Counted from the stretch's first letter, positions 1-39,684 are shown. The stretch is DNA of 64,000 nt from Marsupella aquatica (GCA_973895155.1 OZ316894.1:22043867-22107866), one strand, 5' to 3'. The notes: generated by a model from the letters alone, not told the origin. Numbers and translations: made by a program.

Positions 1-88
1 AAATACAAATGAGTGTTAAGTTATAGACACCAAATCACATATGTCGAAGCAGGAATATAACAACTTTGAAAGAAAAGAACACTTTTGT

Positions 89-122
89 GCGCATGCTTTG
101 AGCGTCCACTCGGTCTGCGATA
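89..122 (+). promoter_or_regulatory. Bipartite motif GCGCATGCTTTGAGC-N5-CTCGGTCTGCGATA upstream of kinase
   Basis: Its 15-bp and 14-bp blocks are identical to the reverse complement of 9498-9530, upstream of the transposase. Confidence 0.6.
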
Positions 123-349
123 TTTCACAAGTGTTGTCTTTCTCTTTTATTGTTGTTATATAGAAAGGTAATTAAAATCATGTGTGCAATAAAAATACAT
201 AATGCATGGGAGAAATAAACCGGGAAAAGATAATAACAATACGACTTGTAATTTTCAGGTTGGTCGTTGAATCCTTATTGGAAGGATTTTATTTAAATCC
301 CGGTAAGATCTTGTTCCTCCCTCACATATTCCTTTTGTGAAGGGAAAAC

Positions 350-2005
350 ATGGTCATCGAAAATTTTAGTTTAGAGTATAGGCAAGTGTTGGAGATGATC
401 ACAAAACATGTGAATGAGGGATATGAGCCGAATCTTGTTGCTCTGGATGCATTGAAGAACGCTCGAAACACTCTCGAACATGCTAGGAATTCTAGCAAAG
501 TGGCCGGGAAACGAAAACGGAAGGGGGCAAACGAAGAGGCAAAACAAGTTCGACACAATGTGGTAGTGTCGATATGGAAAGAGATACTTTATCGCTACAC
601 TCAACCGAAACAGTATGGGGTGGACGGGTTCGAGAGGGAGTTCACAAGACACGGAGAGAAAGGATACAAGAACTTTCTTGGTGAGATAACCCGTTGTATG
701 CGGGAAAGTGTACAAAAGGAGGACAATTTCACACGAGAGCAAATGAAGTCATTTGAAGATGAAACTGAGAAACCGGGAGGATTTCTGGAAAATTTGGCAC
801 TCAACTTGGAGAAGCATGTTTGGGATAATTTGGCAGCCAAAGTGGAAGAGGGTGACACTACATTGCTTGGAAACCCCGGGATGTACACACACAAGAGAGA
901 ATTGCTAGTGAAGTGGAGTAAGGAGTTGGCAATGGCAAAATCTGATAGCAATGTCAAATATGCTAACGAGATTGTGCACTTTGGGGATGTCAGCATCAAA
1001 AGTGCTCGAAAAGGAACACGTCCATCGCGTGTAGTTCCAGAGGTTAGGAGTATCCATTTTCTTAAACCTGAGCAGGTGCACAACACACGTCGCATTGGGA
1101 AAGGAATCCAAGGAGAGGTATACACTTGTCGTATATTACATTGTCCTCTCATTCCCGTCAACGTGACCTTAGTCGCAAAGCGGTTCAAGGATGGAGACAA
1201 GCATAAGAGACGAACTGACGCATTACAAGAAGTGCTTATGGGAGGACTGAATCATAAGGGAATCGTTGGAGCTCTTGCGTTGACTATTGAGGATCCGCCA
1301 AAACTTATTTACGATCACTATAATGGAGGTGACTTGGGTAGCTTTATTGATAAGTGCGGCATATCGTCAAAGAGCAAGGGGAAGGCACAGATCACGACGG
1401 ACCTTGATTTCAAGTTTATTTCGGAGAAGAAACTCTTGTTGGAGAACCGGTTGGGAATCGCCTTGGCTTTGCTGGAGACACTGCAATACTTGCATGAGCA
1501 TGATCGATTTCATTGTGATCTTCACTTTGGAAACATCCTTCTTCATTTCGATCACGAGCACGATGTGGCTATTAAGGTGTATGTTGGTTTATGTGATTTT
1601 GGCTTGTCTAAGCATAAATCACAGTGCAAATTACCAGCTAATCGGATGTGGCCCACAGCAACAGAAAAAGCAGCAACATACCAAAAACAATTTCCACAGT
1701 TGGCTCCGGAGCTTGTTCAACCTACCCCTGTCGAGTTTAGTGAAAGTACCGATATATATGCTTTGGGGAATATTTTTGAGACATTGTTGACAGAGAATTG
1801 GGATGGAATGTCTAAGGGTTCACGGTTTTTGGGGAGGGGTTGGAGTGCACAAGTGCATGGCCCCAAATTGGATATCATAATCCGTGAAATGATGGCCACG
1901 GATGCCAAGAAAAGAATGGATTGTGCTTTTTGGAGTTTGAAGATAGTTCGAACGTTTCCAGATTGCACATTGCATTTGCACAACAGTCCATATCTTAGAG
2001 ATTAG
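350..2005 (+). CDS. Protein kinase (TKL-like fold) with ~240-aa N-terminal extension, single ORF
   Basis: 551-aa ORF with Gly loop IGKGIQGEVY, VAKR lysine, HCDLHFGNILL catalytic loop, DFG, APE and DIYALG. Confidence 0.88.
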   Translation: MVIENFSLEYRQVLEMITKHVNEGYEPNLVALDALKNARNTLEHARNSSKVAGKRKRKGANEEAKQVRHNVVVSIWKEILYRYTQPKQYGVDGFEREFTRHGEKGYKNFLGEITRCMRESVQKEDNFTREQMKSFEDETEKPGGFLENLALNLEKHVWDNLAAKVEEGDTTLLGNPGMYTHKRELLVKWSKELAMAKSDSNVKYANEIVHFGDVSIKSARKGTRPSRVVPEVRSIHFLKPEQVHNTRRIGKGIQGEVYTCRILHCPLIPVNVTLVAKRFKDGDKHKRRTDALQEVLMGGLNHKGIVGALALTIEDPPKLIYDHYNGGDLGSFIDKCGISSKSKGKAQITTDLDFKFISEKKLLLENRLGIALALLETLQYLHEHDRFHCDLHFGNILLHFDHEHDVAIKVYVGLCDFGLSKHKSQCKLPANRMWPTATEKAATYQKQFPQLAPELVQPTPVEFSESTDIYALGNIFETLLTENWDGMSKGSRFLGRGWSAQVHGPKLDIIIREMMATDAKKRMDCAFWSLKIVRTFPDCTLHLHNSPYLRD

Positions 2006-2192
2006 AGATTAGGGTTTACACAATTTTGTAAAGGTCACCTTAACGATTATATGTTTATTCATTGTATGTCAATTACAATGTTCTGCATTTTGTTGATAAT
2101 ATTCTATCAAACTTTGTCGTGAATGCCCAAAATTGTGCTAAATGTGTTTGTACATTGTCAAATATCGCAGACCTTTTGTACACATCGCAAAC

Positions 2193-2933
2193 ATGGGACG
2201 ATGGGAATTGTCTTCTGATGATGAAGACAAAGAGTTCACGATACAACATCTTACCATGCAAGATGGTCAAGGATCCTATTGTGACGATGAAGCTCTTCGT
2301 AATAATGTGTTGGATAATCTTACAACCATTGGCATTCACTATGAGGCTAAACCCAAGGTTGATGGAACACCGGCGCCAAACACAAGAAGATGGGAAGATG
2401 AGGGTATGAAGGATGAATGGAGTATATTAACGCCCAATGTAAATCCTCCCCATGACGAATGGGCCATGAATGCAAAGGAATTGGAGATGTTGATGCCAAA
2501 GAAAGACTTTTGGCCATTAGCACAACAAGTTTTTCACGATCCGGATCTTTGGGCAACAAGATCATGGGCGCAAGAAAAATTCACCATGTCCAAAGTAACA
2601 CATGCAGGTGTTAAATCACATTGGCAGCAACGATATCGAGAGTTTGCTCCACACAAAGCCCAAACGAAAATGAGTTCCGTTTACCCTCCTTTTATCCGAT
2701 GTCTGATTGCTGAATTCATTCTCAAGTGGAAGGTGGATTACCGTTGGGAAAACAGTGCTGGCAAGCTGACTCATCAGGTGCATCCATCAGTGGTTGCGAT
2801 TGCAACGAATAGGAATACAACTATTGCAAAGGACCCTTCAATGGAGACTTCCAACAAGGGATCCAAAAGAAAGCTAGATGACACTGGGGAGGGATATGCG
2901 CATGAGAAGGGGAAAGCGGCTGTACTTCCTTGA
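2193..2933 (+). CDS. Unknown protein; probably the N-terminal half of the RING protein, separated by one in-frame TGA
   Basis: First ATG at 2193; same reading frame as 2940-4139 (CCT TGA GTC TCC ATG). Confidence 0.55.
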   Translation: MGRWELSSDDEDKEFTIQHLTMQDGQGSYCDDEALRNNVLDNLTTIGIHYEAKPKVDGTPAPNTRRWEDEGMKDEWSILTPNVNPPHDEWAMNAKELEMLMPKKDFWPLAQQVFHDPDLWATRSWAQEKFTMSKVTHAGVKSHWQQRYREFAPHKAQTKMSSVYPPFIRCLIAEFILKWKVDYRWENSAGKLTHQVHPSVVAIATNRNTTIAKDPSMETSNKGSKRKLDDTGEGYAHEKGKAAVLP

Positions 2934-2939
2934 GTCTCC

Positions 2940-4139
2940 ATGCCTGACCGTGCAGCACCACCAACCAATGTGGAGTCAACGCACACCAAAAAACCAATCC
3001 TTGTAGGTGTTGGGAGTAGAACTCCACATGCAAAGAACAACAATGTTACTGATGCTAACAAGGATAAGTTCAACCTGCACAACATATGCAAGAGCTTGGG
3101 GGCAGATGTTGCAGAGGTGATTGAGACAAATCTCCGCACGAAGTATGTAGTGGAGCTATGTGAATGTGGCAGCATCGAAAAGTTCAAGTCACAATTGCAA
3201 CAAGCTGATATAAAGATGAGATCACTTGAGAAGAAGCAGAACGAGCCGACGACCAATTCGGAAGTGATGTTGTACAAGTGTCAATTGTTTGACAAGATGG
3301 AAGAAATCAATAAGCTGACAAAACAACTTGCTGAAAAAGAGCGTCAATGCAATGAACTGGCACGACTTGAGGAGAAGGACAAGATCATTAATGATCTTAA
3401 AAGTGAACTTGCAACGCAAGCAATCATCATATCAAATCTTCACGAAGAGGTGCAAGAATTTAACAATGGTGCTTTGGGGATGAGGTCAAACAAAGGGCAA
3501 GGTGAATTATTGCCGCCAAATTTTGTTAACATGCAAATGATAGATCCTACAGGGCACAACAACCTTTTTCCAGATGTGGAGGTTGACGCGGAAGGTATTG
3601 ATAGGTTTTTTGATAAGTGGAAAAAGGATGAAACTATGGTAGCATTTGTTCGTGAAAAGGATGACAAGTGTACTTGGTGCCTATATCCTTGGGGCCCTGA
3701 ATCTGTTTCCATGTTGGGAACCTGCGGTCATATATGGCATCATGCTTGCTTGTCTAAATGGTTGAAGAAAAGCCGAAAATGTTGGTGTCGCACACCATTT
3801 CATGAACGCGAGTATGAGCAACGAGGATTGTTGAAGCAAATGCCATCAATGGAGACTCAACAAAACACTGAAGATATGACTGAAGATACTATACCGGCGA
3901 TGCAAATAGATGAAACTCCCATTGAACATTTCACAATCAATGAATATAATTTGTCAGATGGGGAATTTGACAGGTTGTTATTCAGTGGTCGACTCGATGA
4001 GTGGAAACAATATGCGGCAGCCAACCAGCCATCAATAGATGAGCAAAATTTGCAACGATCCATTCGGCGCCATCGACGACGTCAACAACAGGCAGAGGTG
4101 AAAACAGAAGCTGTTGACAATAACAACAAAAGGAACTAA
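2940..4139 (+). CDS. Coiled-coil + RING-H2-like zinc finger protein (putative E3 ligase)
   Basis: Heptad-rich segment (MEEINKLTKQLAEKERQCNELARLEEK) and CTWC-x14-CGHIWHHAC-x10-CWC, a C3H2C3 arrangement with a shortened last pair. Confidence 0.75.
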   Translation: MPDRAAPPTNVESTHTKKPILVGVGSRTPHAKNNNVTDANKDKFNLHNICKSLGADVAEVIETNLRTKYVVELCECGSIEKFKSQLQQADIKMRSLEKKQNEPTTNSEVMLYKCQLFDKMEEINKLTKQLAEKERQCNELARLEEKDKIINDLKSELATQAIIISNLHEEVQEFNNGALGMRSNKGQGELLPPNFVNMQMIDPTGHNNLFPDVEVDAEGIDRFFDKWKKDETMVAFVREKDDKCTWCLYPWGPESVSMLGTCGHIWHHACLSKWLKKSRKCWCRTPFHEREYEQRGLLKQMPSMETQQNTEDMTEDTIPAMQIDETPIEHFTINEYNLSDGEFDRLLFSGRLDEWKQYAAANQPSIDEQNLQRSIRRHRRRQQQAEVKTEAVDNNNKRN

Positions 4140-4644
4140 AACCAATAGTCTCTACATTTTGATGTTATTTTCATGTAGTTACTATTAGAGACATTTTGTT
4201 AAAATAGAAGCGGCATATCCTCTTTGACAATTATTTTCAACTTGTAATTGGTAAAGAGATTTTGGAGTGACATTACATTGCATATCTCGATGAGTACATA
4301 TATTTTTCATTGGGGGCATGGCGTCGCCTTTTGGAGAATGTGTATTTTTGTAAGAATATTCCATCCTCCAATCAGCCATAGGTTTTGGAAGCATATTGTC
4401 GGGCTCACAATCATATTTTTGGACAAGTATGAGGAAAATAGACGTGATGAGAGACGGTAGCACAGTGGACTCAGGTACTGATCCTTCTCTGAAATCATTT
4501 CCAAAAGGAGATCGTGTAGCACAATGAGTTCAACAAAGTCAACATCGCAATGGTTTTAGCCGCCCAAGTTGAGAATGATTTTGTAGAAGGATGTATACCT
4601 AAGTCCACTCACTTTTCCTGTCTTTCATAATTTTTTCCGCTATT

Positions 4645-5965
4645 GCTGCTACGGCCAATGACATTCATGCACATGCAAACCGAGGCCAACGCCTACTCCT
4701 TTGCCCACCGCAAAAATGGGCCCTCATTACAACTTGAAGTTGAACGGAGTTTATTTGAGTACGAGAGAAGTTCTGAAAGCAAATGCACTCTCAGGTCAAA
4801 TTTTCAGGTCCTTCGAGCAAAAAATTACTGAGTATGTCATCGATCCGTTGGTTTCACAACTTCTCTCGTACTCAAATAAACTCTGTTCAACTTCAAGTAG
4901 CGTAGCTGCTACGACCAATGACATTCATGCGCATGCAAACCGAGGCCAACGCCTCTACATTTGCCTACCCCAAAAATGGGCCCTGATTAGAACTTGAAGT
5001 TGAACAGAGTTTTTTTCATTATGAGAAGGTTTATTCAAGCAATGGCACTCTCAGGTCAATATTTCAGGTCCTCCTGACTTTGTTATTATTGAATATGTTC
5101 GTGCTCCGTTGCTTGAATAAATCTTCTGATAATGAAATGAACTGACCAATTACTGGAGTACGGCTACTACGGCCTATGACATTAATTCGCACAATTGCAT
5201 GTTTATATCCTCTCCTTTCCGAATTCCAATTCGAGCTTGGACATCCTCTCGTCAGCTGGTCTCCACCATTGCAGTTGCTCTTCACGCAAACCAAGATAGC
5301 AGTCTCTAGAATCCTCGAACCTATTTTATTTCAATGCATCATTCATAGTGTTTGAGGAATCCAGAGGTTCGCGTGAGGAGCAACTGAAAGGGTGGAGACC
5401 TGCTGACGAGAGGGTGTCCAAGCTCGAATTGGAATTCGGACAGGAGAGGATATAAACGGGTGAACTTTGACTTGAAATTGGTGATTGTATTTTGCGTCTG
5501 CATATCAATTTGGTGACCGATCTTGCGGAATCCCCGTGACCGTGTCTGATCATCATCATGACATTGCTCTCCTTGGCCACCAATGGGCCCTCATTACAAC
5601 TTCAAGTTGAACGGGGTTTATATGATTATGAGAAGGTTACTGATTATGTAGGCGATGTGTTCATTTCACAACTTCTCTCATAGTCATATAAACTCTGCCC
5701 AACTTCAAGTAGTGCAGCTGCTACGGTCAACGACATTCACCCACCCCAAAAATGGGCCCTCATTACAACTTCAAGTTCAACTAAGTTTATTTTATTACGA
5801 GAAGGTTTATTCAAGCAATGACATTCTCAGGTCCAATAATGAGGTCCTCTCGACCTCATTATTATTGAATATGACGGTGCTCTATTGCTGGACTAAATCT
5901 TCGCATAGTGAAATGAACTAACCAATTAATGGAGGGGGCTAGTATGGACTACGGCTGCTATGGCC
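4645..5965 (+). ncRNA. Cluster of five long stem-loops (candidate polycistronic pre-miRNA/hairpin-RNA locus) built from duplicated units
   Basis: Inverted repeats at 4732-4898, 5014-5137, 5201-5457, 5599-5710 and 5786-5918; leader motif GCTGCTACGGCCAATGACATT-like near 4645, 4906, 5163, 5717 and 5954; many mismatches are G-U on the + strand. Transcription is not shown. Confidence 0.55.
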
Positions 5966-6227
5966 AACAACAAGGTACTTTGAAATAGTCAGTGTTGGAG
6001 ATTTGGAAAACATGTTGCGTTGGTGTGTCTCTATGGCATTCTCAAATGCAAATACAAATAAATTATTCAATCATTGTACAATAATAAACACACTGCAAGA
6101 CAATACAATCATGTTACAAAAAATATAATTGTTTATAATTTTGTCTATGTCAGATACGACAATATAAGAGTAGCAACACTTGATATTATCCTAATGAAAA
6201 GATGCTTCAAGGCTGTGAAGAGAAATT

Positions 6228-9112
6228 TCATGCATTGTTGTTAAGATTTTTGCACAAAAGCGCATTCCACTCGTCTTGTTTGTCGCCCCAACTGAGTGGA
6301 TCACGATTGTGTGACTGAACATTGTGCGATGTTTCTTGAAATGATGATATTCCTCGAAACCCACCAAGGCCAATAGGCCTGTTCGACGTATATGGATTCA
6401 TGACACTTGGCCCTGCATACGCATTCAAGGGTGGACCTGCATGGTGTTGCCAGTTTGCATGTGGGTCGTTTGAAGTTTGACCTTCATGATTGTTGTATCC
6501 ATGAAAAAAGGTTGATGTCCTTCCATTCGTCGGATGCCCTGCTGTGCCTGTGCGTTGCTCGTTGAAATATGGTCTGCTTGTGTCAACATCATTCGCAAAG
6601 TTCGACCAAGGTGACCTTGGTTGGGAAGGCATCACAAAGTTTCTATCCAGTGATGCATCTTCCTCGTCTTGGATTTGCGATTCATCAATTGTAGGATACA
6701 TCTCCAAATCCATTTCATTCTCCCATTCCTCTGCAGCAGTGATGTCTGTATCTGGTGGAATACGAGTCAAGAACTCACTATCCTTATCCAGTGAAAATCC
6801 GTGTAGCAATTCATCAGCATCATCAATTGTATCATAATCTTCGACATCTTCTTCACCAAGAGCCGCACGTGTTGCATCGTACTCTTCATTGCTGCACAAC
6901 TCCATGGAGATAGGTCTAGGTCCATCATTTGTTCTTCTTCTTTGGTCATAACGTTCATATATAAACGTATGCGGGTTTCGAACATTTGTGAGCCCTTTCT
7001 CTACCCTCATGTTTGTAAATACAAACACCAAATCTTTTGCTCGATCATTTGTCAATCGATTGCGACTTTTGGAATGTATAAATCCATACGAACTCCAGTT
7101 TCGCTCGCAAGCTGATGCGCACACTTTTTGGTGTAAGATTCTTCGCGCCAGGATTCTCAAATGTTTATAATCTGCACCATACGCATGCCACCACTCTGCT
7201 GGACTGACATTACCTATACTTGATTGGGCGGCTCCCATCGCTATTGATGTGTTGGGATTTTTTTTTGGGCGTCAATGGCTTGACTGTGGATGGCAGAAAT
7301 AAGTTCTCTGACGTCGCGATCATGGTTGATCCCCTCCTTCACCTGTTGTTCTGAATATCTAGCAATGTATTCACTGAAACCCCTGTAGAGTTCTGGATCT
7401 CCAGCGACATCTATGTCCTCATCAAAAAACATTTGGGGATTGAGATATGCTGCCGCTAGCATGAAATCAGTGGTAAGAGATTTTTTTCGATCCAAATACA
7501 CTTTTAGTATCTTCGGTTTCAATACCTCTGTTACCAATGGACAATCCTCCATGCTTGCTTTAAAAACATCAATCCCTCTTTTCAAACTCCAATACAACCA
7601 ACCTGATTGCGGAGAATCACCATCAAATTCTCGCAACATCTTGACCAACGGAGTAAAGAATTTAACTGTATCCTTCACTTCAACCCAAAATGTATCTTGC
7701 TGTATCCACATTTTAAGTTCGTCTGCCTTTCCCCTCGTCATGTGTCCAGCTGATTTTGGTCGCAATGGAAGTCTATCACGATAAGACTGCCAATTATCAT
7801 CAATGACCATCTGTTGTAAAGCTCCTCTTAGCTCCAACGCTCTTTGTGCCATTAGAAAATTGGTCGCAAATCTAGTTGCATTTGGATTCAACAGTTTTTT
7901 GTCAGGAGATTTTCTTGCAAATATTGCAGAAAGCTTTTGCGATGATGAAACTGCTTTTACTATCCACCTCAACCGTTTAAAAATCTTTTGGAATGGATTC
8001 TGTCCAACATCATCTACCACTACACGCTTGTGACCACACATATCCTCTAGCAGCAAATTAAACACGTGGGCAGCACACCAGCTCCAAGTGACATGAGGAT
8101 ACTTTTTCATGACTACCTCACAACCTGCTACGCGATTTGCGGGTGCTCCATCAGTTACAATTTGAATAATATGATCTGCACCAATATCCTCAATGTATTT
8201 CAACCACATGTCGCCAAGATATTTCCCATCTTTCTTGTCAGCTTGCGCAGCATTCCAACTATCCAAGAAGAAGTCACCTTTAGAAGTCAACAACATGACA
8301 TTCATCAAAGGTTCTCTTCGGACGTTTTCCCATCCATCTGAAGAAAGAGAATACCCATAAGGTTTTGCCTCCTTTAAAGTTTGCGTCATGTCCTTTGTGA
8401 GATCCTCCTTACTGTCTTCCAATAATTTCAATCGCAAACTTCGCATCGTAGGTAGAGAATAATCATTGACAATCCCTTTTGAAGTCTCTATGACTGCTTC
8501 TCGAAAAAAAGGATTATTTGAAACATTGAATGGAATACCACTGGTGTAGAAAGCTTTCACCCAAAGCTTATCCAAATTTGTTCTATTTGGAATTTGATAG
8601 GCATCCATAATTGGGTTAGGAAGATTTACTGGCCTATCTCCTTCCCTTACATGTGTATCATCCATGTCAACATAGTTTGACCCTCGTGTGGATGCTTGCG
8701 AATATGAACTTCCAACGCTTGGCCTACGACCTCTCACATCCCGCAAGATATGACTTCCATCTCGTCGTTTGTACTTTAAGGTCGGTGGAACCTTTATCAC
8801 ATTGTACATAATGTTGATGGCATCCAAATTGACGACACCATAGAGTTGCATGCAAGGGGGCGCATCCCCTTTTTGGATGTTTCCCATCAAATGCGCCTTT
8901 GCTCGTGTTGCATGATGAGTAACGTATGTTAAACAATACTTGCATCTTCGATAGATACGATTGACATCATGACATGTTGAAGGCGCATCACATCGTTCAA
9001 AATATCTCCACACTGGAGATTGTTTTGAAGGGTGTTCTTGCACACGAGTTGGACCAGGCCTGGGAGTAGTGGAATGATATCCAGTTTCATGCGAATCCTC
9101 TTCATCGGACAT
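6228..9112 (-). CDS. hAT transposase (BED zinc finger, DUF659-type DDE core, hAT dimerisation domain, acidic C-terminal tail), frameshifted at an A9 run
   Basis: BED finger (VWRYF...CKYC...HL), SDGW, IVTDG, CAAHVFNL and TRFAT lie in ORF 7241-9187. SPAEWW...LARRIL...SACERNWS...RNRL lies in ORF 6228-7238. One extra A at 7258-7266 joins them into ~961 aa. Likely ATG at 9112. Confidence 0.92.
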
Positions 9113-9205
9113 TGTTACGACTCTCAATGGTAAAAAAATAAAAGGGTTGATTCTTTTGATTTTGTGAATATAACAAATATAGTACAATGGGTTACTTTCC
9201 TGAAT

Positions 9206-9530
9206 TATCGCAGACTGGGCCTAAGCTCAAAGCATGCGCAGGAAAGTTTCCCAAATTCTTATATTTGTCAACATCCCTACTTCAACCTATGTTATGTAAT
9301 ATCTATAACTTCACAATAGTTTATCTTTGAAGTGAACATATGTACGAGAAATCGTGATACCCATATGAAATGTCATAGACCGAGCCAAAGCTCTAAGCAT
9401 ATGCACATGGGTATCTCTTTACTCGCAAGTAGTTCACTTTCAAACAAAACAATGATGCAAAGTTGTTAAGGCGATATAAGGAACTTCTCGTACGAATTAT
9501 CGCAGACCGAGCCGAGCTCAAAGCATGCGC
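9206..9530 (-). promoter_or_regulatory. Three copies of the bipartite GCGCATGCTTTGAGC...GTCTGCGATA motif upstream of the transposase
   Basis: Copies at 9206-9240, 9373-9405 (degenerate) and 9498-9530. Confidence 0.6.
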
Positions 9531-9759
9531 GTACAAGAGTTCCAATGTATCCCTCCGATCTCTCCCTAATGCTAAACCACAAGAGAGAGAAACACAATGA
9601 GACTTTGGATTAGTGAAATGAATTAGTTATTCCTACTTATACTAAATCATCTACTTCTTATCCTCTCTTAAAACTCTTAATCTTTGATCCTAACCCTAAT
9701 TGCGCCTCCCTTAACCCTAATCTCGCGCCCCTAACCCTAATCCCGCCTCTAACTCTTCC

Positions 9760-10300
9760 CCGGCCACCAATTCCCGAGCCCCGTCCCCGAACCCCGCACC
9801 CCGTTCCCCGAACCCCGTTCCCCGCATCCCCGAACCCCCTACCCGAACCCCCTTCCCCGAACCCCCTACCTCGTTCCCCGAACCCCGTTCCCCGAACCCC
9901 GTTCCCCAAATCCCCGAATCCCGGCCCCCCTTTCCCGCCCCCCCTTCCCCGGTTCCCCGAATCCTCTTCCCCGAATGCCCCCCGTCCCCGGTTCCCCGAA
10001 TCCCGTCCCCCGGGCCACCTTTACCCCGGCCGGCCCCGGAAGGGTCCGGGCAGGGTTCGGGTGGGGGTCCGGGGAGGGTTCGGGTGGGGGTCCGGGGAGG
10101 GTCTGGGAAAGGCCCGAGAGTCCGGGGAGTGTTCGGGGGAGGGTCCGGCGAGGTTCCGGGAAAGGCCCGGGAGGGTCCGGGGAGGGTCCGGGAAGGGCCC
10201 GGGAGTCCGGGTTCGGGTCAGGGGGAGTTCGGGTTCAGGTCCGGGGTGCTCGGGAGGTGTTCGCGAAAGGTCCGGGGAAGTCGGGGTTCGTTCGGGAGAA
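9760..10300. repeat. GC-rich subterminal repeat block (CCCCGAACCCCGTT-type units, then G-rich GGGTCCGGG/GTTCGGG units)
   Basis: C-rich half 9760-10030 and G-rich half 10030-10300; short motifs in both orientations, as in hAT subterminal transposase-binding arrays. Confidence 0.8.
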
Positions 10301-12516
10301 TCTTCAGGAATATACGTCAAATTGCGTGTTTTCGGGCCGTCATTTGACGATTTGACGTGCCCGACAAGGCGTCAAGGTGCCCGTCAGATTAAACCGGGAT
10401 TCCATCATTCAATAGAAGTACAAATACATTTATCTGTCACTAATACACTACACAAGATGTTTTATAGACAAGATCTAGCAACAAAGATCTAGTGCAAAGA
10501 GTACTTAATCATCACTTATCTTCAGAAAGTTCACTGCTTAATCACACATCAAAATGTGATAAGATACGGTGTGCACTCACTAACTTAAAGAAAATTAGTA
10601 CCTTTATCCTGGTATGGAGCTATGTAGTACACAGTATGCGCCATATTTTAATGTATAGTATTTTGGGGATATGTCATATCAGGCCCATCGTTTCACATAT
10701 CCCCGGAATCACATAGAGTACAAGGAATCACTTATCCATTTTGGAAACGATGGGCCTGTACGAGGGTGTAAGGTACGAGTTTAGGGTTTAGGAATCACAT
10801 AGAGTACGAGTACTACAGTATTTGACCTGACATCAGAATCACGCATTCCCCAAAGAACTCTGTTGCCTCTGAAACTGTCACATGTCAAATGTTGCCTTGA
10901 AACTATCACATGTCAATGGAGAAGTGCATGTTCAAATTGGAGAAGTGGACATTTCAGTTCTTTGAAAATGCACTTCTGTTAGGTCACATGTCAAATCAAC
11001 TTGGAGAAGTGGACACATTTCACTTCTTTAAAACTGCACTTCTATCATAATCTGAAGTTTTGGGGGTAAGTGTGCAATAATTTGGGGTCTCAAACTTCAA
11101 AATTTGGTGAACCCTAATTACTAAATTAAGGTTAGGGGACAATAAAAGCTATGGAATACCAGATTCATGATCTATAACTATTTCCCATATCCCATGAGTC
11201 AATGTAGAGGCTAGTGAAACCCTGCCAAAATGGTTGTTTGTTTTCATGTGAAAACCAGTCTGTAACTATGAAGCTTTGAGACCGACCCACTTGTAGGGCA
11301 TCTCAATCTTTGTGGGGTGGGGCGGTGGAACTTTGAGAGGGCTTGTAGCAAGTCCGCCTGCCGTGTGCAAAAAAGCCCCGGCAAAACTGTGTGGTCGGCA
11401 ACTCGGCGTACCACACATTTGAAGTCTGTAGCAAGTCAGCCTGCGGTGTGCCAAAAAATCCCAGGGCAAAAATTTGTGGTCAGCAACTTGGCGTACCAAA
11501 CATTTTAAGTCTGCTTCCCCACTCCAAAGTACCAAACATTTTAAGTCTGCTTCCCTACTCCAAAGCCTGGGAAAATGCCGACCTCAAAAGTTTGAGACCC
11601 CCTAATGTAAACGCTCCAAAGTACCAAACATTGGAAGTGTGCTTCCCTACTCCAACGTCTGGAAAAATGCCGATCTAAAAATAGTTTGAGACGCCCTAAT
11701 AATGTAAACGCTAGCACATTCCCGGAACTGCAGAATCGAAAGTTCGTGCCCTTAGGCTGTGGACAGTAAGGCCATCATCCTCGCCTGCCACGGCAATCCG
11801 CGCACCATAGTGACAGGAAGTCAATAGTCGAGTTAAATTATCGATTCCCATCCCCGTATCATTCTGAATGGTGAAGCAGACTGGTCATTCTGATTGGTTG
11901 GGATCGATACCTATGGACTGGCTAGCTTGTCGACCAAAACGCCATTCCCCACCTTCCGGGGACCTTCTGTAGCTAGGAGTGGTAAGAAAGTATCGACAGT
12001 CACATCCACTCCAAGACGTGTCACTCATTTGTCAGGAGTCTGTAACTTTTCAACTACTCAGACGATTTTTTTGCGTCTCATATTATTATATAAAGCGCCA
12101 AATAAAGGAATCATGATTGCCGTCGAGCAACATCAATGTTTACGCCGGGCTGCAGAGTGCTTGAATAGTCTTGTCACACAAGCAATCTGGGTATGTAATG
12201 ATCGTCGATCTCCACACCGTGAGGAGGCGGAAGGCTGTATGTGAATCTCGACGCACATAGTATTAAGCCTGGGATTTCTTCGTACGTAATTGATGTTCGG
12301 GAACAATCGATGAAGAGGAGACGATTCAAGATGACTCGTCAGGGTACTTGAGCTCGAAATATCGAGTGAGCAACTCTAAGTCTTGGTGAATTTTGTTTTT
12401 TTGCCTTGAAAGCCTTGGTGAATTCAATTCTCCAAGCTTAGGGCTTGCACTCAGGAGGAGCTGAAGAGGTGTACTCGGTTTGCCAGCACAGTCGTCGGTG
12501 GTGTGTTGCCTGAGGT

Positions 12517-15257
12517 ATGGAGCCGACAAGGAAAAGAAAGGGTCAATTGCTGATCAGTAATACAAAGATAAATGCCGGCAAGGAAACGGAAGATGTACCA
12601 GAAAAGAAAAATGGCCTGCCCATCACCGACCCGAATTGGGAGTGGTCCACTTATGATCAATATGTAGACAAGGAAGGGAGGGTGAAGTTGGAGAAACGGG
12701 AAGCAAAAGAAACCGAGGAGACCGAGACCGGTCCCTTCCGAGTTATCTACCGCAACCAAGCGAGTCTGCAATGGCCAGATGTGGTTCAAATCACTTTGTA
12801 TTCGAGACCCCTCTGCAGAATCATTGGGCAGTACCTCCCCAGAAATGGAGATCTGAAGACTCTGGCAGAACCGAATATCGAGGGCCGAGAGCTATGTGTG
12901 GTGCTGGATGCTCTGAAGAATCACAAATTCGACGAAAAGGGATCTGGGAAACCTGAATATGAAGGACTGGCTGATGGAAATGGTGCACCCGAGCATCAAG
13001 AGCTTGCGAATAGTAATGCTGCACTTGAGAGCCATGTCCTGACTAACGGAGATGCAACTGGTGCACTTGATGAAAGCACTCAAGACGACTGCAGCAAGGT
13101 TGGAAGTGAAGTCGAAGAAGGGGAACTTCATCTGAAACACTTACTGCGGTTCATGGAGAAGGAATACAGAGATGTACAAGTCCGAGTCCAACGCCTGCTA
13201 GCAGAACAACACGTTGCATGGGATATGCTCTGGGCATTCCTACCCTGTGGCAAGAAAGTCGTCTACAGTTGTGACCATTCTGAAGAGCTGCTGTACGCCG
13301 TCGTGTTTACGAATTCTTTCCAGCTGACCGTGAACGGATGGTTCTTCATCGTCGAGCTCGATATCTGGGAGTTTGACGGGCGAAATTACAAGAAGTGTCC
13401 CATTACAAGACGAATCCCTAAATATGAGGGTGAGCGCCCGTTTGCCAGCTTGCTGGTCTGCCCGGTCGAGCTACTTGGAACGCCTGAGCTCTTGGAGGAG
13501 AAATTCTTGGACACTGGCAAGAAATATTTCGATCTCGCCATAAAATCCAAGCACCGGTTTATGCACTACAATGGACCATTGTTTCAGAAAAGACTGAGCA
13601 GCGGGTGCTGGCTCCTACACAAGGAGAACGCCGACGGAAGGGTTATGATTGATCTGGCGAGCTTTGCAAAGATGAAACCTGACTATCCTATGGGGAATGC
13701 GCAGCCGCCAACAGCATCGAGAAGCTCTATAGTTCGTCACAGGAATGGTTCATATTTCTACAGCACAATTCCTGACGAATCTTTCAGTGGCTCTTATTCT
13801 TCGGCAAGATTGGAATCAGTGTCCGACGAGACTCTCATCTTCGCTCCCGGCATTGTTTACGGCTTCTCGTTCACCTTGAAGATGTGGGGCTCTTTCGCAA
13901 TCACTGGCTTTCGGGATATCTCGTTCGACTCATCTGCCTTCAACCAGCTTGTGATGGAACCTCAAATGAAAGACTTGGTGCATAACTTGGTGAGCCACTA
14001 CATTGCAACACCAGCGGATGGGTTGGTGCCCCTTCAGCGAGTAGACCCCATCTCCAACAAAGGCAGTGGATGTGTCTTTCTCTGCTACGGCCCACCTGGG
14101 ACAGGTCAGTTTTTGGACTATAGGAAGTATTTTCAAAACACAAATAGCAACTTGATTCTTCCCTCTACCTCATATTTATTAAATTGAATGATTTCATTTC
14201 CGTTCAGCATTTCACGATGATGATTTCCCTACAGAAAGTGATGAACCGTGACCACTAAGGTAACAACAGATTCAATTTTTAAATCAAAAGTTTTCGTGAC
14301 TTGAGAGGGTGACTGAGTGGAACGACCTGTTCCCAATAAGTGGAATTTAGAGCAACTATGTCACATTCATTTGCACCCATTTTGGCTGATAGATACCACT
14401 CTTTCCCTATTGACTAGCCAGTTGACTACAGTAGCCGCATCTTTTATCTAGCTTTAATACTAGCTCGGTGTCCATTGGGCTCTTTCCTTCTTTTTTCCCT
14501 ATGGCCCGCGCCATGGTATGTCACATTCATCCGTAATGTGGTATCACCCAGCCAAAATGGGTTTGGATGAGTAATACCACACGTCGTACTGACCACATTT
14601 TTTAATTACCATTGCTAACAACGGTGCACTTGCGGACCGTTTGTTGCAGGAAAGACTTTGACAGCGGAGTCCATAGCCGAGACTTTGGGTCGTCCACTGT
14701 GGGCTCTTAGTGTGAGTGAGCTTGGAACAACGCCCAACGAGCTCGAGCAGACGCTGTTCAAGGTTCTGGACATCGCAGCAGCCTGGCGGGCCGTGCTGCT
14801 GCTCGATGAAGCTGATGTCTATCTTGAGAGGCGCGTCTCAGGAGCAGACCTCACTCGAAACGCGATGACCGGTGTCTTCCTGCGCATGCTGGAGTACTAC
14901 CGCGGAGTGTTGTTCCTCACAACGAACCGCATTGGCACATTTGACGAAGCGTTCCGTTCCCGAATCTCCATGTTTGTGCACTACCCAAGCCTTAGTATTC
15001 AACACAAGGAGCAAATCTGGAAGGCTCTTCTCGGAAAGGCCCAACTAAAAGATGTGGTGGGCTCTGAGAAGCTATCGGAGTTGGCGGCTCTGGACTTGAA
15101 TGGCCGTGAGATCAGAAACGCCATTCACACAGCGCAAAGCTGGTCACAGAGCAAGGGAGAGGCCCTGCAGTTTGGGCATGTGGAATATGTAATCAACGTG
15201 CTGGTAGCCTCTCTCAAATCGCTCAATGAGGCAGTCCATGCACGAGCATATAATTAG
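12517..15257 (+). CDS. Fungal-type AAA+ ATPase (DUF7025-like N-terminal region + AAA domain), 2 exons 12517-14104 and 14650-15257, ~731 aa
   Basis: Splicing GT(14105)..AG(14649) rebuilds Walker A CYGPPGTG|KTLTAE. Also Walker B VLLLDEADVYLERR, FLRMLEYYRGVLFLTTNR, FDEAFRSRI and LNGREIRN, plus N-terminal WDMLWAFL, GRVMID and VYGFSFTLKMW motifs typical of the filamentous-fungal family. Confidence 0.9.
14367..14570. repeat. Small inverted-repeat (MITE-like) remnant in the ATPase intron
   Basis: 14367-14399 and 14538-14570 are imperfect ~33-bp inverted repeats sharing ACCCATTTTGGCTG and GATACCAC; no TSD identified. Confidence 0.4.
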
Positions 15258-15891
15258 CTACCTCTGCAATTAGCTGTCCCAATTAAGTGTCGGACCCGCT
15301 TGAAGGAACCTTTTGCCTAAGCACTAGCAGGTCTTGAGAAATTGTGCTGCTTCACCTACTAATAATTTAGAAACAGTGTCCTGGCGGTTTAGTTACCTGT
15401 CTTTAGACTACTTGCCAAGTGTCCACCGCCCACTCCATTTAGTGCACTCCGTCCTCCAATCTTCTTCTTACAACAAGATCTCTGACTAGAAGATTGAAGT
15501 AACACTAGAAGAAAACAGGGCCCTTTATGACCAATCACCCAATGACGGAGATGAATAAATGACCAAAATTTTTTATGACACAAAAAGAATGACAGGGGAA
15601 TGACTGTCCACAATGACCAATGGACTGAAATGACAAAATGTTAACTTTTGCGTCATTTTGTATAATGTCTGTAATGATTGATGTGACCAAAATGACCCAA
15701 TTTCCCTAAATGGTCAATTTAGACACATGTCTCAAATAACGCAATTAATAACAACAATGATAAATCAATGTTTAACAACATTATAGTCACTCTGGACAAT
15801 GATTGAAATGACCAAAAATCTATTTGAGTCATTTTGGACAACGGTGATAAATGACAAAAAATGTATTACCGTCATTTTAACCAACGGTGTT

Positions 15892-16330
15892 AAATGACAA
15901 AATATAGGGTCAATCTGAAAATGAGAATATATCAATGTTTACAACAACATATTGTCATTATGGACTTCTCCCATAAATGACTAACTCTAGGGTCAATCTT
16001 GAAATTAGGACATATCAGTGTTTACAAGAACATACCGTCATTATGGACTTCTCTCATAAATGACTAACTCTAGGGTCAATCTTGAAATTAGGACATATCA
16101 GTGTTTACAAGAACATACCGTCATTATGGACTTCTCTCATAAATGACTAACTCTAGAGTCAAACTTGAAATTATGATATATCGGTGTTTACAATAATATA
16201 CTGTCATTATGGACTTGTTGCATAAATGACTAAATATAGGGTCAATCTAAAAATCATGATATATCAATATTTACAATAACATATAGTCATTATGGACTTA
16301 TTGCATAAATGACTACTTATAGAGTCATTA
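15892..16330. repeat. 83-bp tandem repeat (~5 copies) in the CACTA left subterminal region
   Basis: AAATGAC recurs at 15892, 15975, 16058, 16141, 16224 and 16307; each unit has an inverted GTCATT...AAATGAC pair. Confidence 0.9.
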
Positions 16331-16409
16331 AAGAACCCAAGAGATATGAAGATTAAAATACTCAATAGTCATTCCAGACACCGGTCATAATTGTAGAGTC
16401 ATTGATATA

Positions 16410-19400
16410 GTTGATAACCCTTCCACTAAGTGCGGGACACAATACTCATCATTGTCCTCCCACTGGTTGGGGCATTAGCAATTTGAACACATGTCTTGCA
16501 TTTACTTTAGGCATGATGCACCTAGCTTTGGGGAAATCACTCCCAAGTCATACACCTTTGGAGTGATTTTCCATAAGTGTCACCATATATAGATGCGCGC
16601 ATACTACCGTATCCAAAGGCAAATGAAACCTTTTTGTCTCTCCAAGAAGTAGGGCAATACCAATGGAAGGTTGTCATCCTTTGTTGTAATTGTGTCATGT
16701 TTGTGCCGGTGTTTGGATGGGGAATATTTTAATTTGCAAATAAATAGTGATGGGGCATTCAAGGAGCTTGTGTAATCTTTATTGGGTCATTTCTAAAAAC
16801 ATTTGCATTACAAATACCAATGACTACAAGTAGGGTCATTAAATTTGTCATATGGACGGTCATATAAGTCAAGTGACTGGACTTGTGGTTATTTGTGTGG
16901 TCCCTCATGCAATCATTAAACACAAGCACAAATGACCAGTTTGGGGCTGGGGGCTTGAGGTGGGCCCTAGAGTGCCATGGGGCCCCACATAGAGGTGAGA
17001 ACCCCTCCACTAGGTGCGGGACACTATACTCATCATTGTCCAACCACTAGTTGCGACATAAACACTTTGGACACATGTTTTTGCGCTTACTTCAGGCATG
17101 ATGCACCTTTGGGGAAATCACTCCCAAGTCGTATGACTTCGGAGTGATTTGCCAAAAGTGTCACCATGTATGCATACCATCACATCCAAAGGCAAATAAA
17201 AGTTGTTTTTTGGTTCTCCAAGAGGTAGTGCTACACCAATGGAATGGGCAGGGGAGTCGTGTTTCTCAGTATGGTGTGGGTGCGGGATTAGGGTATAGGA
17301 ATATTCCAATCTTGCAAGGAATCTAAAGCTGGCTCTAGTTGGAGGTACTAGGGCCTTTATTGGGTCATATGTGAGCAATGGTCCGTCATAAATGCCAATG
17401 ACTAAAAGTAGGGTCATTAAAACTGTCATATGGAGAGTCATATCAGTCTAATGATTGGATTTGTGGTCATTTGAGGGGTCCCTCATGTAGTCATTAAGGA
17501 AAAGCACAAATGACCAGTTTGGGGCTAGGGGCTTGAGGTGGGCCCTAGAGTGCCATGGGGCCCCACATAGAGGTGAACCCCTCCACTAGGTGCGGGACAC
17601 TATACTCATCATTGTCCAACCACTAGTTGTGACATAAACACTTTGGACACGTGTTTTTGCGTTTACTTGAGGCATGATGCACCTTTGGGGAAATCACTCC
17701 CAAGTCGTGCCAAAAGTTCAACCATGGATGTATACCATCACATCCAAAGGCAAATAAAACATATTTTTGGTTCTCCAAGAGGTAGTGCTGCACCAATGGA
17801 ATGGGCAGGGGAGTCCTGCTTCTCTGCATGGTGTGGGTGTGGGATTAGGGTATAGGAATATTCCAACCTTGCAAGGAATCTAAAGCTGGCTCTCTTTGGA
17901 GGTACTAGGGCCTTTATTGGGTCATATGTGAGCAATGGCCCGTCATAAATGCCAATGACTAAAAGTAGGGTCATTAAAAATGTCATATGGAGAGTCATAT
18001 CAGTCAAATGACTGGATATGTGGTCATTTTAGGGGTCCCTCATGCAGTCATTAAGGAAAAGCACAAATGACCAGTTTGGGGCTAGGGGCTTGAGGTGGGC
18101 CCTAGAGTGCCATGGGGCCCCACATAGAGGTGAGAACCCCTCCACTGGGTGCGGGACACTATATTCATCATTGTCCAACCACTAGTTGCGACATAAACAC
18201 TTTGGACACATGTTTTTGCATTTACTTGAGGCATGATGCACCTTTGGGGAAATTACTCCCAAGTCGTACGACTTTGGAGTGATTTGCCAAAAGTGCAACC
18301 ATGGATGTATACCATCACATCCAAAGGCAAATAAAACCTATTTTTTGGTTCTCCAAGAGGTAGTGTTGCACCAATGGAATGGGCAGGGGAGTGGTGCTTC
18401 TCCGCATGGTGTGGGTGCGGGATTAGGGTATAGGAATATTCCAACCTTGCAAGGAATCTAAAGCTGGCTCTCTTTGGAGGTACTAGGGCCTTGATTGGGT
18501 CATATGTGAGCAATTGCCCGTCATAAATGCCAATTACTACAACAAAGGTCATTAAAATGGTCACATTGGATGTCATATAAGCGGAATGACCTGAATTATT
18601 GTCATTTAAGGGGTCCCTCATGCAGTCATTAAGGAAAAGCACAAATGACCATTTTGGGGCTAGGGGTTGGAGGTGGGCCCTAGAGTGCCATGGGGCCCCA
18701 CATAGAGGTGAGAACCCCTCCACTAGGTGCGGGACACTATACTCATCATTGTCCAACCACTAGTTGCGACATAAACACTTTGGACACATGTTTTTGTGTT
18801 TACTTAAGGCATGATGCACCTTTGGGGTTTAGGGTTGTTTTGTGGTTCTCCAAGAGGTGGTGCTGCACCAATGGAATGGGCAGGGGAGTCGTGCTTCCCT
18901 GTATCGTGTGGGTGCGGGTTTAGGAAAGAGGAATATTCCAACCTTGCAAGGAATCTATTGGGGGCTCTCTTTGGAGGTACTAGGCCCGGTACTAGGGCCT
19001 TCATTGGGTCATTTGTGAACAATGACATGATGTCATAAATACCAATGATTACAAATAGGGTTGACCATTGAAACCGTCATATGGAATGTCATATAAGTCA
19101 AATGACGGGATTTGTTGTTATTTGAGGGGGTCCTTTGTGGAGTCATTGAAGACAAACATAAATGACCAGTTTGAGGCTAGGTGCTGGAGGTGGGCCCTAG
19201 AGTGCCATGTGGCCCCACATGGGGCTGGAAACCCCTCTACTAGGTGCGGGATATTATATTTACTATTCTTCAACCATTAGTTGCACCATAATTAATGTTG
19301 AATCATATTTTTGCATTTACCTAAGGCATGATGAAACTTTGAGGAAATCACTCCCAAGTCATACGGCTTTGGAGTGATTTGCCAAAAGTCTCACCATGTG

Positions 19401-21000
19401 AAATAATAGTTGTTTTCTTGTTCTCCAAGAGGTAGGGCAAAACTAGGGGAAGGTTGTTGTCCTTCTATTTAACTGTGTCATATCTATGCCAGTGTTTGGG
19501 TGGGGAATATTCTATTCCATTGCAAAGGAAATGCGAGGGGGCACTCCAACAGGTAGTGTAATCTTCACTAGGTCATATTCGAGTAATGGTGTTCATTAAA
19601 GCCAATGACAATAGTAAGGGTCATTTTGGCAGTCATATTGCAGGTCATTTGGACCAAATGACTGCATATGTGGTCATTATAGAGGTCCCTCATAGTGTCA
19701 TTATGGACCAACATAAATGACCAGTTTGGTGCTAAGGATTGGAAGTGGGCCCTAGACTGCCATGGGGCCTTGCATGAAGGTGGCAACCTCTCCACTAGGT
19801 GCGGGACACTATAATCATCATTGTCCAACCACTAGTTGTGCCATGAACACTTTGGAGCCATCTTTTTGCGTTTACTTAAAGCATGATAGAACCTTGGGGA
19901 AATCACTCCCAAGTCATACAGATTTGGAGTGATTTGCCAAAAGTGTCACCGTGGTTGAATACCATCATTATCAATGGCAAATTGAGCCTTTTGTTTTGTC
20001 TCTCCAAGAAGTAAAGCAATGTCACCAATCAATGGAAGGTTGTTGTCCTTCTATGTAAGTGTGTGATTTTTGTGTTGATGTTTTGATGGGGATACTCCAT
20101 TTTGCATATGAATAGTGTCGGGGCATTGTGAGTAGGTGTTGTAATCTTCATTGGGTTATTTTGGAGTAATGTTGTGTCATTAGTGCCAATGACTACACTA
20201 AGGGTCATTTTGGGAGTCATTTTGGATGTCATTTGTACAAAATGACTGCATATGAGGTCATTAGACAGGTCCCTCATGATGTCATTATGTACCAGTAGAA
20301 ATGACCCTTTTAGGTCTAGGAACTTTGGGTGGGCCCCAATGTGCCATGAGGCCCGCCATGGGGCCCTACATGAAGGTGGTAACCCCTCCACTAGGTGCGG
20401 GACACTATACTCATCATTGTCCAACCACTAGTTGTTAGTTACATGAACATTTTGGACACATGTTTTCATGTTTACTTAAGGCATGATGCAACCTTGGGGA
20501 AATCATTCCCAAGTCGTACAACTTTGAGGTGATTTGCCAAAAGTGTCACCAAGGATTAATACCATCATTTGCAAAGGTAAATCAAGCCATTTGTTTTCTC
20601 TCTCCAAGAGGTAGCGCAACACCAATGGAAGGTTGTGGTCCTTCTATTTAACTATGTCATGTTTGTGATGGTGTTTGGATGGGGGATATGATATTTTGGG
20701 GATATTTTGCAAATAAATTGTGACGGGGCACTCTAGGAGGTAGTGTAATCTTTATTAGGTCATTTTGGAACAAAGTTGTGTCATAAATGCCAATGACTAC
20801 AAATAGGGTCATTGAAACGGTCATATAGGATGTCATATAGGTCAAATGACCAGACTTGTGGTCATTACATTGGTCCCTTGTGGAGTCATAAATGTGGTAC
20901 TACATAGAGCTGGGAACCTGCCTCCGGGTGCAGTACACTCTACTGTATACTATTCTCCATCCATTAGTTGTGGCATAAACCTGCACTTTGGGATATGGGG
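16410..21000. repeat. ~520-600-bp tandem array (~8 copies) inside the CACTA element
   Basis: Anchor CCACTAGGTGCGGGACAC at 16423, 17007, 17583, 18142, 18720, 19237, 19792 and 20388, degenerate near 20920; central copies are the most similar. Confidence 0.92.
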
Positions 21001-30230: not shown

Positions 30231-30402
30231 ACAGCATATCGTGGAAAAGCTTTTAACAACTCCTTTCCAATTAAACCAGGTCTGATTGCTAGCGAGCTCC
30301 AGGCATGATCCGAAAATACCCATGGGACAGCTTTGCTCTCTTTTCAATATTGATTTCTGCATGCCAGCCAAAGCCTTTCTCTAGCCACATTTCATTCAAG
30401 TG
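30231..30402. repeat. ~170-bp dispersed repeat, inverted copy at 39685-39852
   Basis: Shared blocks such as CCAGGTCTGATTGCTAGCG and GGGACAGCTTTGCTCTCTTTTCAATATTGATTTCTGCATG appear as reverse complements at 39.7-39.85 kb. Confidence 0.8.
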
Positions 30403-38679: not shown

Positions 38680-39684
38680 CCTGGCAAACCACAAGTAAGT
38701 TGCTCTATCACACAATATTTTCTTGCGATCTCTAGCAATGAAGTCTGTGCTCCTCCAAGTAATTAGCCATACTTACTAGTCTATCCTCTTCAGTCTTTAG
38801 TTGAGGTTAAACTACTCCACTTAACCTAACCAGACTCTAGAGTTATGTTCAATAAGCATTCACATCAACATAAATGTGGGATTGGTCCAAACTTTCCTAA
38901 ATGCTCTGAGTACTTGTAAGGCCAACTGTTTCTATTGATTATACAATCCAGATTAGTCTTAGAAGGAATTCCCTCTAATCTTAGAGATGTTCAGTCTAAT
39001 GCTTTGTGTTAGAGTGTTCGATCTCCCTAAATTAAAGAATAACCTTTAGATTCTGGCTTATGGGGTCTCTAGCAAAAGTGGGAAACTGGCTAATCCATAT
39101 AACTAATTGCTAACAGAAGCCACAGTTGGGGTCTAGACTTCTAGACTGACTCCTAGCTGTAGACCATAACTCTAAATAAAGACAAAATCAATAGACAAAA
39201 CTGAAAGTCAAGTGCTTACTTACCAAAGAGAGGAATGGGGACAAAACTGAAAGTGAAGTGCTTACTTACCAAAGAGATGGATGGGGAAAAGATGAAGCAG
39301 AAACAACATAGATTCTTTTGCAAGGTTTTTTGGTATTATCTCTAGTTATGTTCAAGTAACGGGTAAGCAGGCTAGTGGAACAAAAAAAAACTAGCCTAAT
39401 TTTAGCTAAAAGCGACTTTTGAGAGAGATAGATCTAGCAGCTTTTGGCCACTAAAAAAAGGCTCGTAGGGTTTCTCCTTTTTCTGCATTGCAAGCGGTCA
39501 CGCTATCTTCATACCGGCCTAACTTGTTTAGCAGACACGTGGGAATGCTGTATACCCATAGGATCCTCCCCACTTGAGGCTCAGCCAAAACTCCTGACAT
39601 GCCGTGTGACACCTCAACGGATATTGCTGTCAGACCTTACACTCTTACACACACGCATTGAACTGGGCTTTACATCAAGAGATT

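Follow-up and report, generated by a model that had tools for sequence, protein, structure and literature searches.

A multicopy hAT transposon of Marsupella aquatica with probable cargo of kinase and RING genes and a hairpin cluster

Results

Organization of the element

We analyzed a 64,000-nucleotide (nt) stretch of DNA from Marsupella aquatica (GCA_973895155.1, OZ316894.1:22043867-22107866; hereafter, the window). Positions 1-10398 of the window make up most of one multicopy DNA transposon, the left end of which lies upstream of position 1. An intact protein kinase gene and a RING gene, both on the plus strand and separated by 187 nt, converge on a hAT transposase gene on the minus strand, and a cluster of five hairpins lies between the 3' ends (Table 1). 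The transposase gene has its own promoter and starts 1.3 kb inside the right terminus; no terminus was seen within the block. If the two sides are symmetrical, the left end would lie approximately 1 kb upstream of position 1, which would give a whole element of approximately 11 kb.

A sequence-only reading of this DNA had proposed the convergent genes, the hairpins between them and a common upstream motif, and all three were borne out. The kinase and RING matches in Pfam exceeded their cut-offs, the transposase lay on the opposite strand, the five hairpins had folding z-scores of -6.2 to -23.3 (40 dinucleotide shuffles each), and the upstream regions of the kinase and transposase genes aligned over 120 of 182 columns with a score of 75.7, compared with a maximum of 48.7 in 300 shuffles. 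The description of the genes as AT-rich stood in part: their guanine-plus-cytosine (GC) content of 42-44% is lower than that of the AAA, long interspersed nuclear element (LINE) and DUF1995 open reading frames (ORFs) in the window (48-51%) but does not differ from that of the window at large (43% for 15500-64000).

Table 1. Features of the element; positions are counted from the first nucleotide of the window
Feature	Position	Strand	Description
Promoter motif, conserved, 5' of the kinase gene	81-127	+	Inverted match to 9201-9247; aligns with the transposase and L001 upstream regions
Kinase gene, intact, 551 amino acids (aa)	350-2005	+	N-terminal helical domain and tyrosine kinase/tyrosine kinase-like (TK/TKL-like) kinase domain; HCDLHFGN catalytic loop
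RING gene, 648 codons	2193-4139	+	N-terminal conserved domain (fold unassigned), coiled coil, RING-H2-like finger ending in CxC, conserved C-terminal helices
Five-hairpin cluster	4725-5935		Four paralogous units with a common linker and one unrelated long hairpin
Paralogous hairpin units	4725-4905, 4985-5150, 5590-5720, 5755-5935		Common linker
Unrelated long hairpin	5195-5462		92-nt arms, 92% complementary
hAT transposase gene, ~960 codons	6228-9112	-	DUF659 and hAT dimerization domain
Transposase promoter region	9201-9542	-	Three copies of the common motif at 9530, 9404 and 9239; spacing 126 and 165
Subterminal region	9689-10310		Three telo-box-like AACCCTA motifs, then C-rich and G-rich repeat tracts facing each other; 68% GC
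Right terminus	10381-10398	-	Inward reading CCCGGTTTAATCTGACGG; loose contig ends behind 10398

The element is repeated as one unit

The window was compared with the assembled contigs of four public runs (X1-X4) from two studies, out of seven runs listed. Copy numbers were taken from the depths of single contigs and are a rough measure. Seven contigs of run X1 that showed 0-3 differences to the window covered parts of 4-9803 at depths of 183.5-243.1, and the right subterminal contig had a depth of 173.7, compared with 14.2 for the flank contig (10370-15000); this corresponds to about 12-17 near-identical copies. The kinase, RING and hairpin contigs of this run were as deep as the transposase contigs, at 13-17 times the flank. 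In run X4, from the second study, the depth of the element was 360-427 compared with 41-50 for the flank, corresponding to about 8-10 copies. Of two bridging contigs of X1, one (1974-2665) ran from the end of the kinase gene into the RING gene and the other (5238-6841; 1604 nt) from the hairpins into the transposase gene; among the contigs listed, none spanned 4139-4194 or the entire block.

At the right end, the depth dropped to the flank level, and 10, 7, 35 and 29 contigs in X1-X4, respectively, diverged behind 10398 (agreement 0.36-0.46). Many of these contigs were 80-95% relatives, indicating that the termini belong to a larger family. The copies were dispersed, with 7-35 different flanks per run at the terminus when related families were counted in. 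In X1, single diverged ends at the terminus had depths of 9.7-18.2, and the summed depth of the related termini was ~130 times that of the flank, far above the 12-17 near-identical copies. No empty-site contig, which would reveal an insertion polymorphism, was present among the contigs listed; the unique flank contigs of X3 and X4 started at 10427, and no listed one crossed the junction.

The sequence-only reading had named a cargo-bearing hAT family of >10 kb with a right end at 10398, and it would have been abandoned had the kinase and RING genes been single-copy or had other copies ended between 4140 and 6200. The contig data favor that family: the block is multicopy as one unit, and its right end is sharp, with loose contig ends in all four runs examined. 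The kinase and RING contigs of X1 had depths of 184-229 compared with 14.2, and the depth of 213.5 of contig 5238-6841, one of those listed, indicates that most copies do not stop between 4140 and 6200. These results, together with the kinase data below, make it very probable that the block is one repeated mobile unit with a fixed, selected cargo.

The kinase belongs to a conserved family

The kinase ORF matched Pfam PK_Tyr_Ser-Thr (E value 1.9e-16) and Pkinase (E 1.3e-15), both above the curated cut-off. The motifs GKGIQG, VAK, QE, HCDLHFGN, DFG and APE were all present in the window protein and conserved in the alignment, and the catalytic loop is non-RD, with His at the usual Lys position. 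Judged from these residues, the protein has what an active eukaryotic protein kinase would be expected to have (Gly loop, beta3 Lys, helix C Glu, catalytic Asp and Asn, DFG, and APE). Eight close homologues with 48-73% identity were found (7994 candidates scored), and they retained the catalytic motifs as far as each reaches. When 1.84 billion representatives were searched with a profile, 19 matches were obtained at E<=1e-30, 63 at <=1e-10 and 922 at <=1e-3. Ten of these matches were looked up, including one from Riccia fluitans and one from Gigaspora rosea. The HxDLH loop is common to the window kinase and the G. rosea kinase. A quick tree built from 70 kinase domains placed the window protein in a 17-row clade (SH-aLRT, a Shimodaira-Hasegawa-like approximate likelihood ratio test, 97), accompanied by further divergent families with an HCDL/HNDL loop; the G. 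rosea protein matched too little to enter this tree, and no donor lineage is claimed. Among the named matches, no conventional host kinase was near the window kinase.

The nearest solved structures were Roco4, DDR1 and other TK/TKL kinases (E ~1e-7). The kinase model was of low confidence (predicted local distance difference test, pLDDT, 50.8; 9-row alignment), and structure searches with this model and that of the RING protein gave only kinase lobes and generic coiled coils; neither the kinase nor the RING protein had a usable Atlas match. In viral contigs, 116 pattern matches for the kinase and 50 for the RING protein were obtained, none of which was confirmed. The profile search also returned several other kinase families (P0056-P0107), 440-680 aa long, with a helical N-terminus and an HNDL or HCDL loop; most are Logan records, and they are candidates for more transposon-borne kinases.

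A metagenome scan for the kinase reduced 211 pattern matches to three loci. L001 is a contig of 5822 nt, L002 is a 1.5-kb fragment, and L003 was dropped as a relative because it was a bacterial kinase in a bacterial context. The ratio of nonsynonymous to synonymous substitutions (dN/dS) of the window kinase was 0.44/2.49 (~0.18) against L001 and 0.32/1.99 (~0.16) against L002, values that are only rough because the synonymous sites are near saturation. The kinase belongs to a family of its own that, by these ratios, is held by purifying selection (dN/dS ~0.17).

The kinase promoter recurs beside a different partner gene

For the window kinase promoter, a second copy of the motif was placed ~164 nt further upstream, outside the window, by a joint (122->4) in three of four runs and by the geometry of a 989-nt contig. 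In L001, a kinase 47% identical to that of the window is followed directly on its 3' side by a two-exon DUF6729 gene at 2584-5821 (Pfam E 1.7e-11) with an in-frame stop at 5519-5521. The DUF6729 protein had no similarity to the hAT protein of the window. Its motifs DH, YLDKCC and LDxHH resemble what we take to be those of KDZ-type transposases, and from its sequence the gene looks like a transposase gene of another superfamily. No RING gene was found in the 3.6 kb 3' of the L001 kinase, and a possible match to the start of the RING gene 182 nt behind the L002 kinase was not significant.

The upstream DNA of the L001 kinase was identical to the transposase promoter of the window in 227 of 400 columns, with a score of 104 compared with a maximum of 54 in 300 shuffles. 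L001 carries three copies of the motif, spaced by 123 and 164 nt, compared with 126 and 165 nt in the window transposase promoter. Together with the motif in the window kinase promoter, this homology indicates that promoter and kinase form a conserved module found with at least two different partner genes.

The RING gene

The RING region is read as two ORFs, 2142-2933 and 2934-4139, in frame with each other and parted by a stop at 2931-2933; because three of four homologues span both, they represent one gene. An intron across this stop was rejected, as the homologues are collinear there and other copies read through. The finger matched Pfam zf-RING_2 (E 3.1e-6; 27.8 bits compared with a cut-off of 27.3). 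Its pattern, C-x2-C-x14-C-x-H-x2-H-x2-C-x10-C-x-C, supplies eight ligands, with a last pair of CxC where C3H2C3 ends in CxxC, and the CxC ending was also present in all three homologues that retain the finger. Four close homologues were found with 42-70% identity (2797 candidates scored), and the closest named relative was from the leafy liverwort Calypogeia fissa (52%). The model of the protein was of low confidence (pLDDT 46.9, 8-row alignment). One kinase homologue (P0004) and one RING homologue (P0019) each came from a Logan contig of 5391 nt, probably one and the same, which suggests the same kinase-RING pairing in another organism. The core of the promoter motif (TATCGCAGAC) also occurs at 2163-2172, 21 nt before the RING start codon, in an orientation opposite to that of the other copies.

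The transposase

The transposase matched DUF659 (E 2.1e-30) and Dimer_Tnp_hAT (E 4.6e-11) in two frames of the minus strand, and its homologues run across the frameshift as one protein. The motifs SSDGW, VTDGA, CAAH and CERNWS were present. By its sequence, the protein is a DDE transposase with a C-terminal dimerization domain, as expected of the hAT superfamily. Its pieces were 74-75% identical to the closest named relative, from C. fissa, and its C-terminal tail is long, acidic, of low complexity and poorly conserved. No close relative of the element's proteins other than those of C. fissa carried a name, and by this homology a liverwort host is likely. When the window was searched for the partner terminal inverted repeat (TIR) of 10381-10398 with up to three mismatches, the single match was the terminus itself.

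The hairpin cluster

In the four paralogous units, the stems have diverged yet pairing is retained: 94.8% of cells were paired and 7 of 25 pairs had changed on both sides, a result reached by none of 500 shuffles, although it comes from only four related sequences whose own consensus supplied the structure, and the signal could also arise by arm-to-arm conversion. Taken at face value, the hairpins resemble a plant microRNA cluster in having predicted stable stem-loops whose pairing is kept. Joints in X3 and X4 showed that hairpin units are rearranged in related copies. No Rfam family matched the hairpins at threshold; two weak MIR matches lay far below the gathering scores. The 21-mers of the ten hairpin arms were searched on both strands against the window outside 4600-6000 and against L001. 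This gave 30 hits at a penalty of up to 5, the best at 4.0, and the three sites inside the element were no more than its share of the sequence. Targeting of the element by its own hairpins was rejected because these sites were not above that share and none fell under a penalty of 4. The possibility that the arms are captured coding DNA was also rejected, as nine open frames had no Pfam match at threshold and no PDB match.

The window copy is young and damaged

The window copy is young: across 5806 bases, the seven X1 contigs showed 8 differences from it and one gap. It nevertheless carries breaks that were absent from the sequence-only reading. The premature stop in the RING gene occurs only in the window copy and is missing from the majority path of the contigs. 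The transposase gene has a frameshift at a T run near 7257-7266, where the majority path has one more T at 7257 and keeps the frame, and it ends at a stop at 6228-6230, six codons early, where the majority path reads past 6230. Contigs lose rare variants, and individual sister copies may bear lesions of their own.

All or nearly all X1 contigs disagreed with the window copy at 8 sites (among the 40 of 642 differences listed). Seven of these eight were C-to-T changes in CG (4) or CHG (3), contexts that make up ~12.5% of the element, and this excess is the pattern expected from the decay of methylated DNA. The CHG ratio was depleted in the genes of the element (0.63-0.84) compared with the flanks (0.94-1.21).

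Neighboring sequences

Just outside the element, a second multicopy repeat has its terminus at 10539-about 10600; 37, 18 and 48 contigs of X1, X2 and X4, respectively, had loose ends before 10539. A single-copy AAA+ ATPase gene follows at 12514-15257 (plus strand), with DUF7025, a weak match to a fungal AAA lid, one intron within the Walker A region and a fungal-type architecture. Behind it lie an 83-bp tandem array (15784-16347) and a 555-600-bp unit repeated approximately eight times (16400-21200), with a short palindrome in every repeat. LINE-type reverse transcriptase and zf-RVT ORFs parted by a stop are present at 36765-38762 (minus strand), and inverted arms of 130 nt surround the LINE region (30273-30402 and 39685-39814). 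A DUF1995 ORF of 358 aa with 51% GC at 45536-46612 (minus strand) is likely a host gene.

Discussion

The window contains a member of a recently amplified multi-gene transposon family; cargo-carrying DNA transposons as such are already known. Several points weigh against reading the block as one mobile unit whose cargo serves it. The left end lies outside the window. Depth tracks copy number only roughly, X1 possibly comes from the same source as the window, and near-saturation of synonymous sites leaves the kinase dN/dS rough. L001 has no RING gene next to its kinase, so kinase and RING genes are not always adjacent, and the suggested pairing of P0004 with P0019 rests on the equal 5391-nt size of their contigs. 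No hairpin target was found in the window and L001 sequences searched, and the window copy gathered methylation-type mutations despite its cargo. In addition, the terminus CCCGGTTT fits two of the five specified positions of the plant hAT TIR consensus (T/C)AGNGNNG (PMC6027215), a common pattern and not a strictly defining one.

In the mechanism that we propose, the whole unit would be mobilized by the hAT transposase in a cut-and-paste manner, and the mirror-image promoters, pointing inward from both sides, would make expression of the kinase and the transposase coincide in the same cells. Host proteins that restrict the element would be modified by the non-RD kinase through phosphorylation and by the RING protein through ubiquitination. 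As the hairpins do not match sequences of the element, the small RNAs that they would yield are proposed to act on host transcripts. When a cargo stays intact over large distances and next to unrelated partners, the best reading is that it serves the element via a host substrate, and since methylation is eroding the window copy, counter-silencing would be its likeliest role. We therefore tentatively favor a counter-defense kit that may help the element to escape host silencing.

A wider form of this proposal is possible, and we hold it more doubtfully. The dedicated non-RD kinase family and its triple-motif promoter might be a liverwort transposon signaling toolkit swapped between superfamilies (hAT and DUF6729-type), joined by the RING ligase and a polycistronic small-RNA cluster in marking and removing host silencing factors, or in acting as a poison-antidote pair. 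The conserved kinase, the RING protein and the five hairpins would offer three weapons that can be tested directly in a lineage that has Marchantia as a genetic model, and what is annotated in liverwort genomes as an "expansion" of kinase or RING genes can be transposon cargo.

Non-RD kinases are often active without phosphorylation of the activation loop, and haploid spores give drive an arena. Both facts suit a toxin-antidote (addiction or spore-killing) cassette, in which the kinase would be the poison of cells or sibling spores and carriers would be cleared of it by the RING protein, possibly aided by the hairpins; the tandem of a kinase and an E3-like gene 187 nt apart also suits it. We consider such a cassette somewhat unlikely. 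With 10-17 near-identical copies, almost every spore would inherit the antidote and drive would be weak. Moreover, in the window copy the kinase is intact but the RING gene next to it is truncated, and no RING gene adjoins the kinase of L001, although other copies could supply the antidote in trans. A precedent for its parts exists in nematodes, where Mavericks carry krma kinases and a Mutator-like element (MULE) carries the msft-1/tlpr-1 toxin-antidote element, according to the portion available of bioRxiv 10.1101/2022.07.12.499685.

It is unlikely that the cargo regulates the element itself, with the kinase switching the transposase on or off, the RING protein turning it over and the hairpins damping expression. 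The homologous promoters of the kinase and transposase genes would fit such a circuit, and the acidic, low-complexity tail of the transposase could take modifications. However, no 21-mer of the ten hairpin arms pairs with the element at a penalty of <4, and in L001 the same kinase family adjoins a protein unlike the window transposase, which argues for a substrate outside the element.

The occurrence of the same promoter module in L001, followed by the kinase and then a DUF6729 gene, could also mean that the CCCGG termini, the mirrored promoters and the kinase form a wider family holding various transposases, with the hAT gene as just one occupant or with the enzyme responsible for movement encoded upstream of the window. 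For a plant hAT the terminus is unusual, and the related termini in X1, at ~130 times the flank depth, exceed the 12-17 near-identical copies. We nevertheless regard a composite or nested structure as decidedly unlikely, because the hAT gene lies 1.3 kb inside the terminus with its own promoter, at a copy number equal to the rest and with no internal terminus seen, and because the excess of ends is explained by hAT subfamilies that have diverged and by copies that are non-autonomous.

Gene capture is common among plant TIR transposons, so that the cargo could be host genes or pieces captured once, as in Pack-type elements, and carried without benefit to the element. This is highly improbable given whole ORFs with a dN/dS of ~0.17 over a near-saturated synonymous distance and a divergent homologue family (19 matches at E<=1e-30) with no conventional named host kinase close to it. 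Assignment as a Pack-type element was likewise rejected, as the element has its own transposase and whole ORFs under purifying selection, and no close conventional parent was present among the named matches. That these are single-copy host genes merely beside a hAT is barely credible, as the kinase, RING and hairpin contigs are 13-17 times as deep as the flank, like those of the transposase, and the depth is high in both studies.

Set against known systems, the family resembles the plant hATs with a DUF659-type transposase (Ac/Tam3/Tag1-like) in its DDE transposase with DUF659 and hAT dimerization domains, sharp terminus, subterminal repeats and dispersed copies. It differs from them in its size of >10 kb, two extra whole genes, the hairpin cluster and the terminus CCCGG. 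In the literature covered, which did not extend to subscription journals and Repbase Reports and was in part available only as portions of text, no plant hAT with kinase or RING cargo was found. The words kinase, RING, ligase and hAT are absent as whole words from the main text, as far as available, of an atlas of Arabidopsis transposon products (PMC13547354).

Among fungi, TET/JBP genes occur in hAT7 and ten other DNA transposon lineages and alpha-kinases occur in IS3EU of rust fungi, as reported in the part available of Kojima 2025 (PMC12730594). Like the window element, these hAT7 and IS3EU transposons hold whole accessory genes, which are common to several superfamilies, and in IS3EU the kinase gene is oriented opposite to the transposase gene, with further cargo between them (PMC12730594, same part). 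The window element, in contrast, is in a land plant and is a hAT, not an IS3EU; its kinase is TK/TKL-like, not an alpha-kinase, and its further cargo is RING and hairpins, not a dioxygenase. The krma kinases, as far as that preprint could be drawn on, likewise show a kinase family tied to transposons as cargo, but their vector is a virus-like animal Maverick and the kinase is HipA/CtkA-like, whereas the window has a plain plant hAT and a TK/TKL-like kinase.

In function, the model proposed for the window element would come nearest to VANC of VANDAL, a group of Arabidopsis MULEs, and to miR820 of rice CACTA elements, in which a transposon-borne protein or small-RNA hairpin counters silencing (PMC6719617, available part). 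No relation in sequence was seen (no Pfam or Rfam match at threshold), and the window cargo is predicted to be protein-modifying enzymes, whereas VANC-type proteins are DNA-binding factors. Few counter-silencing systems encoded by transposons have been described; the available part of that 2019 review (PMC6719617) lists three, all in flowering plants, none of which modifies host proteins. If the toolkit reading were true, the window element would be a plant transposon that, in the manner of large viruses, turns phosphorylation and ubiquitination against host proteins.

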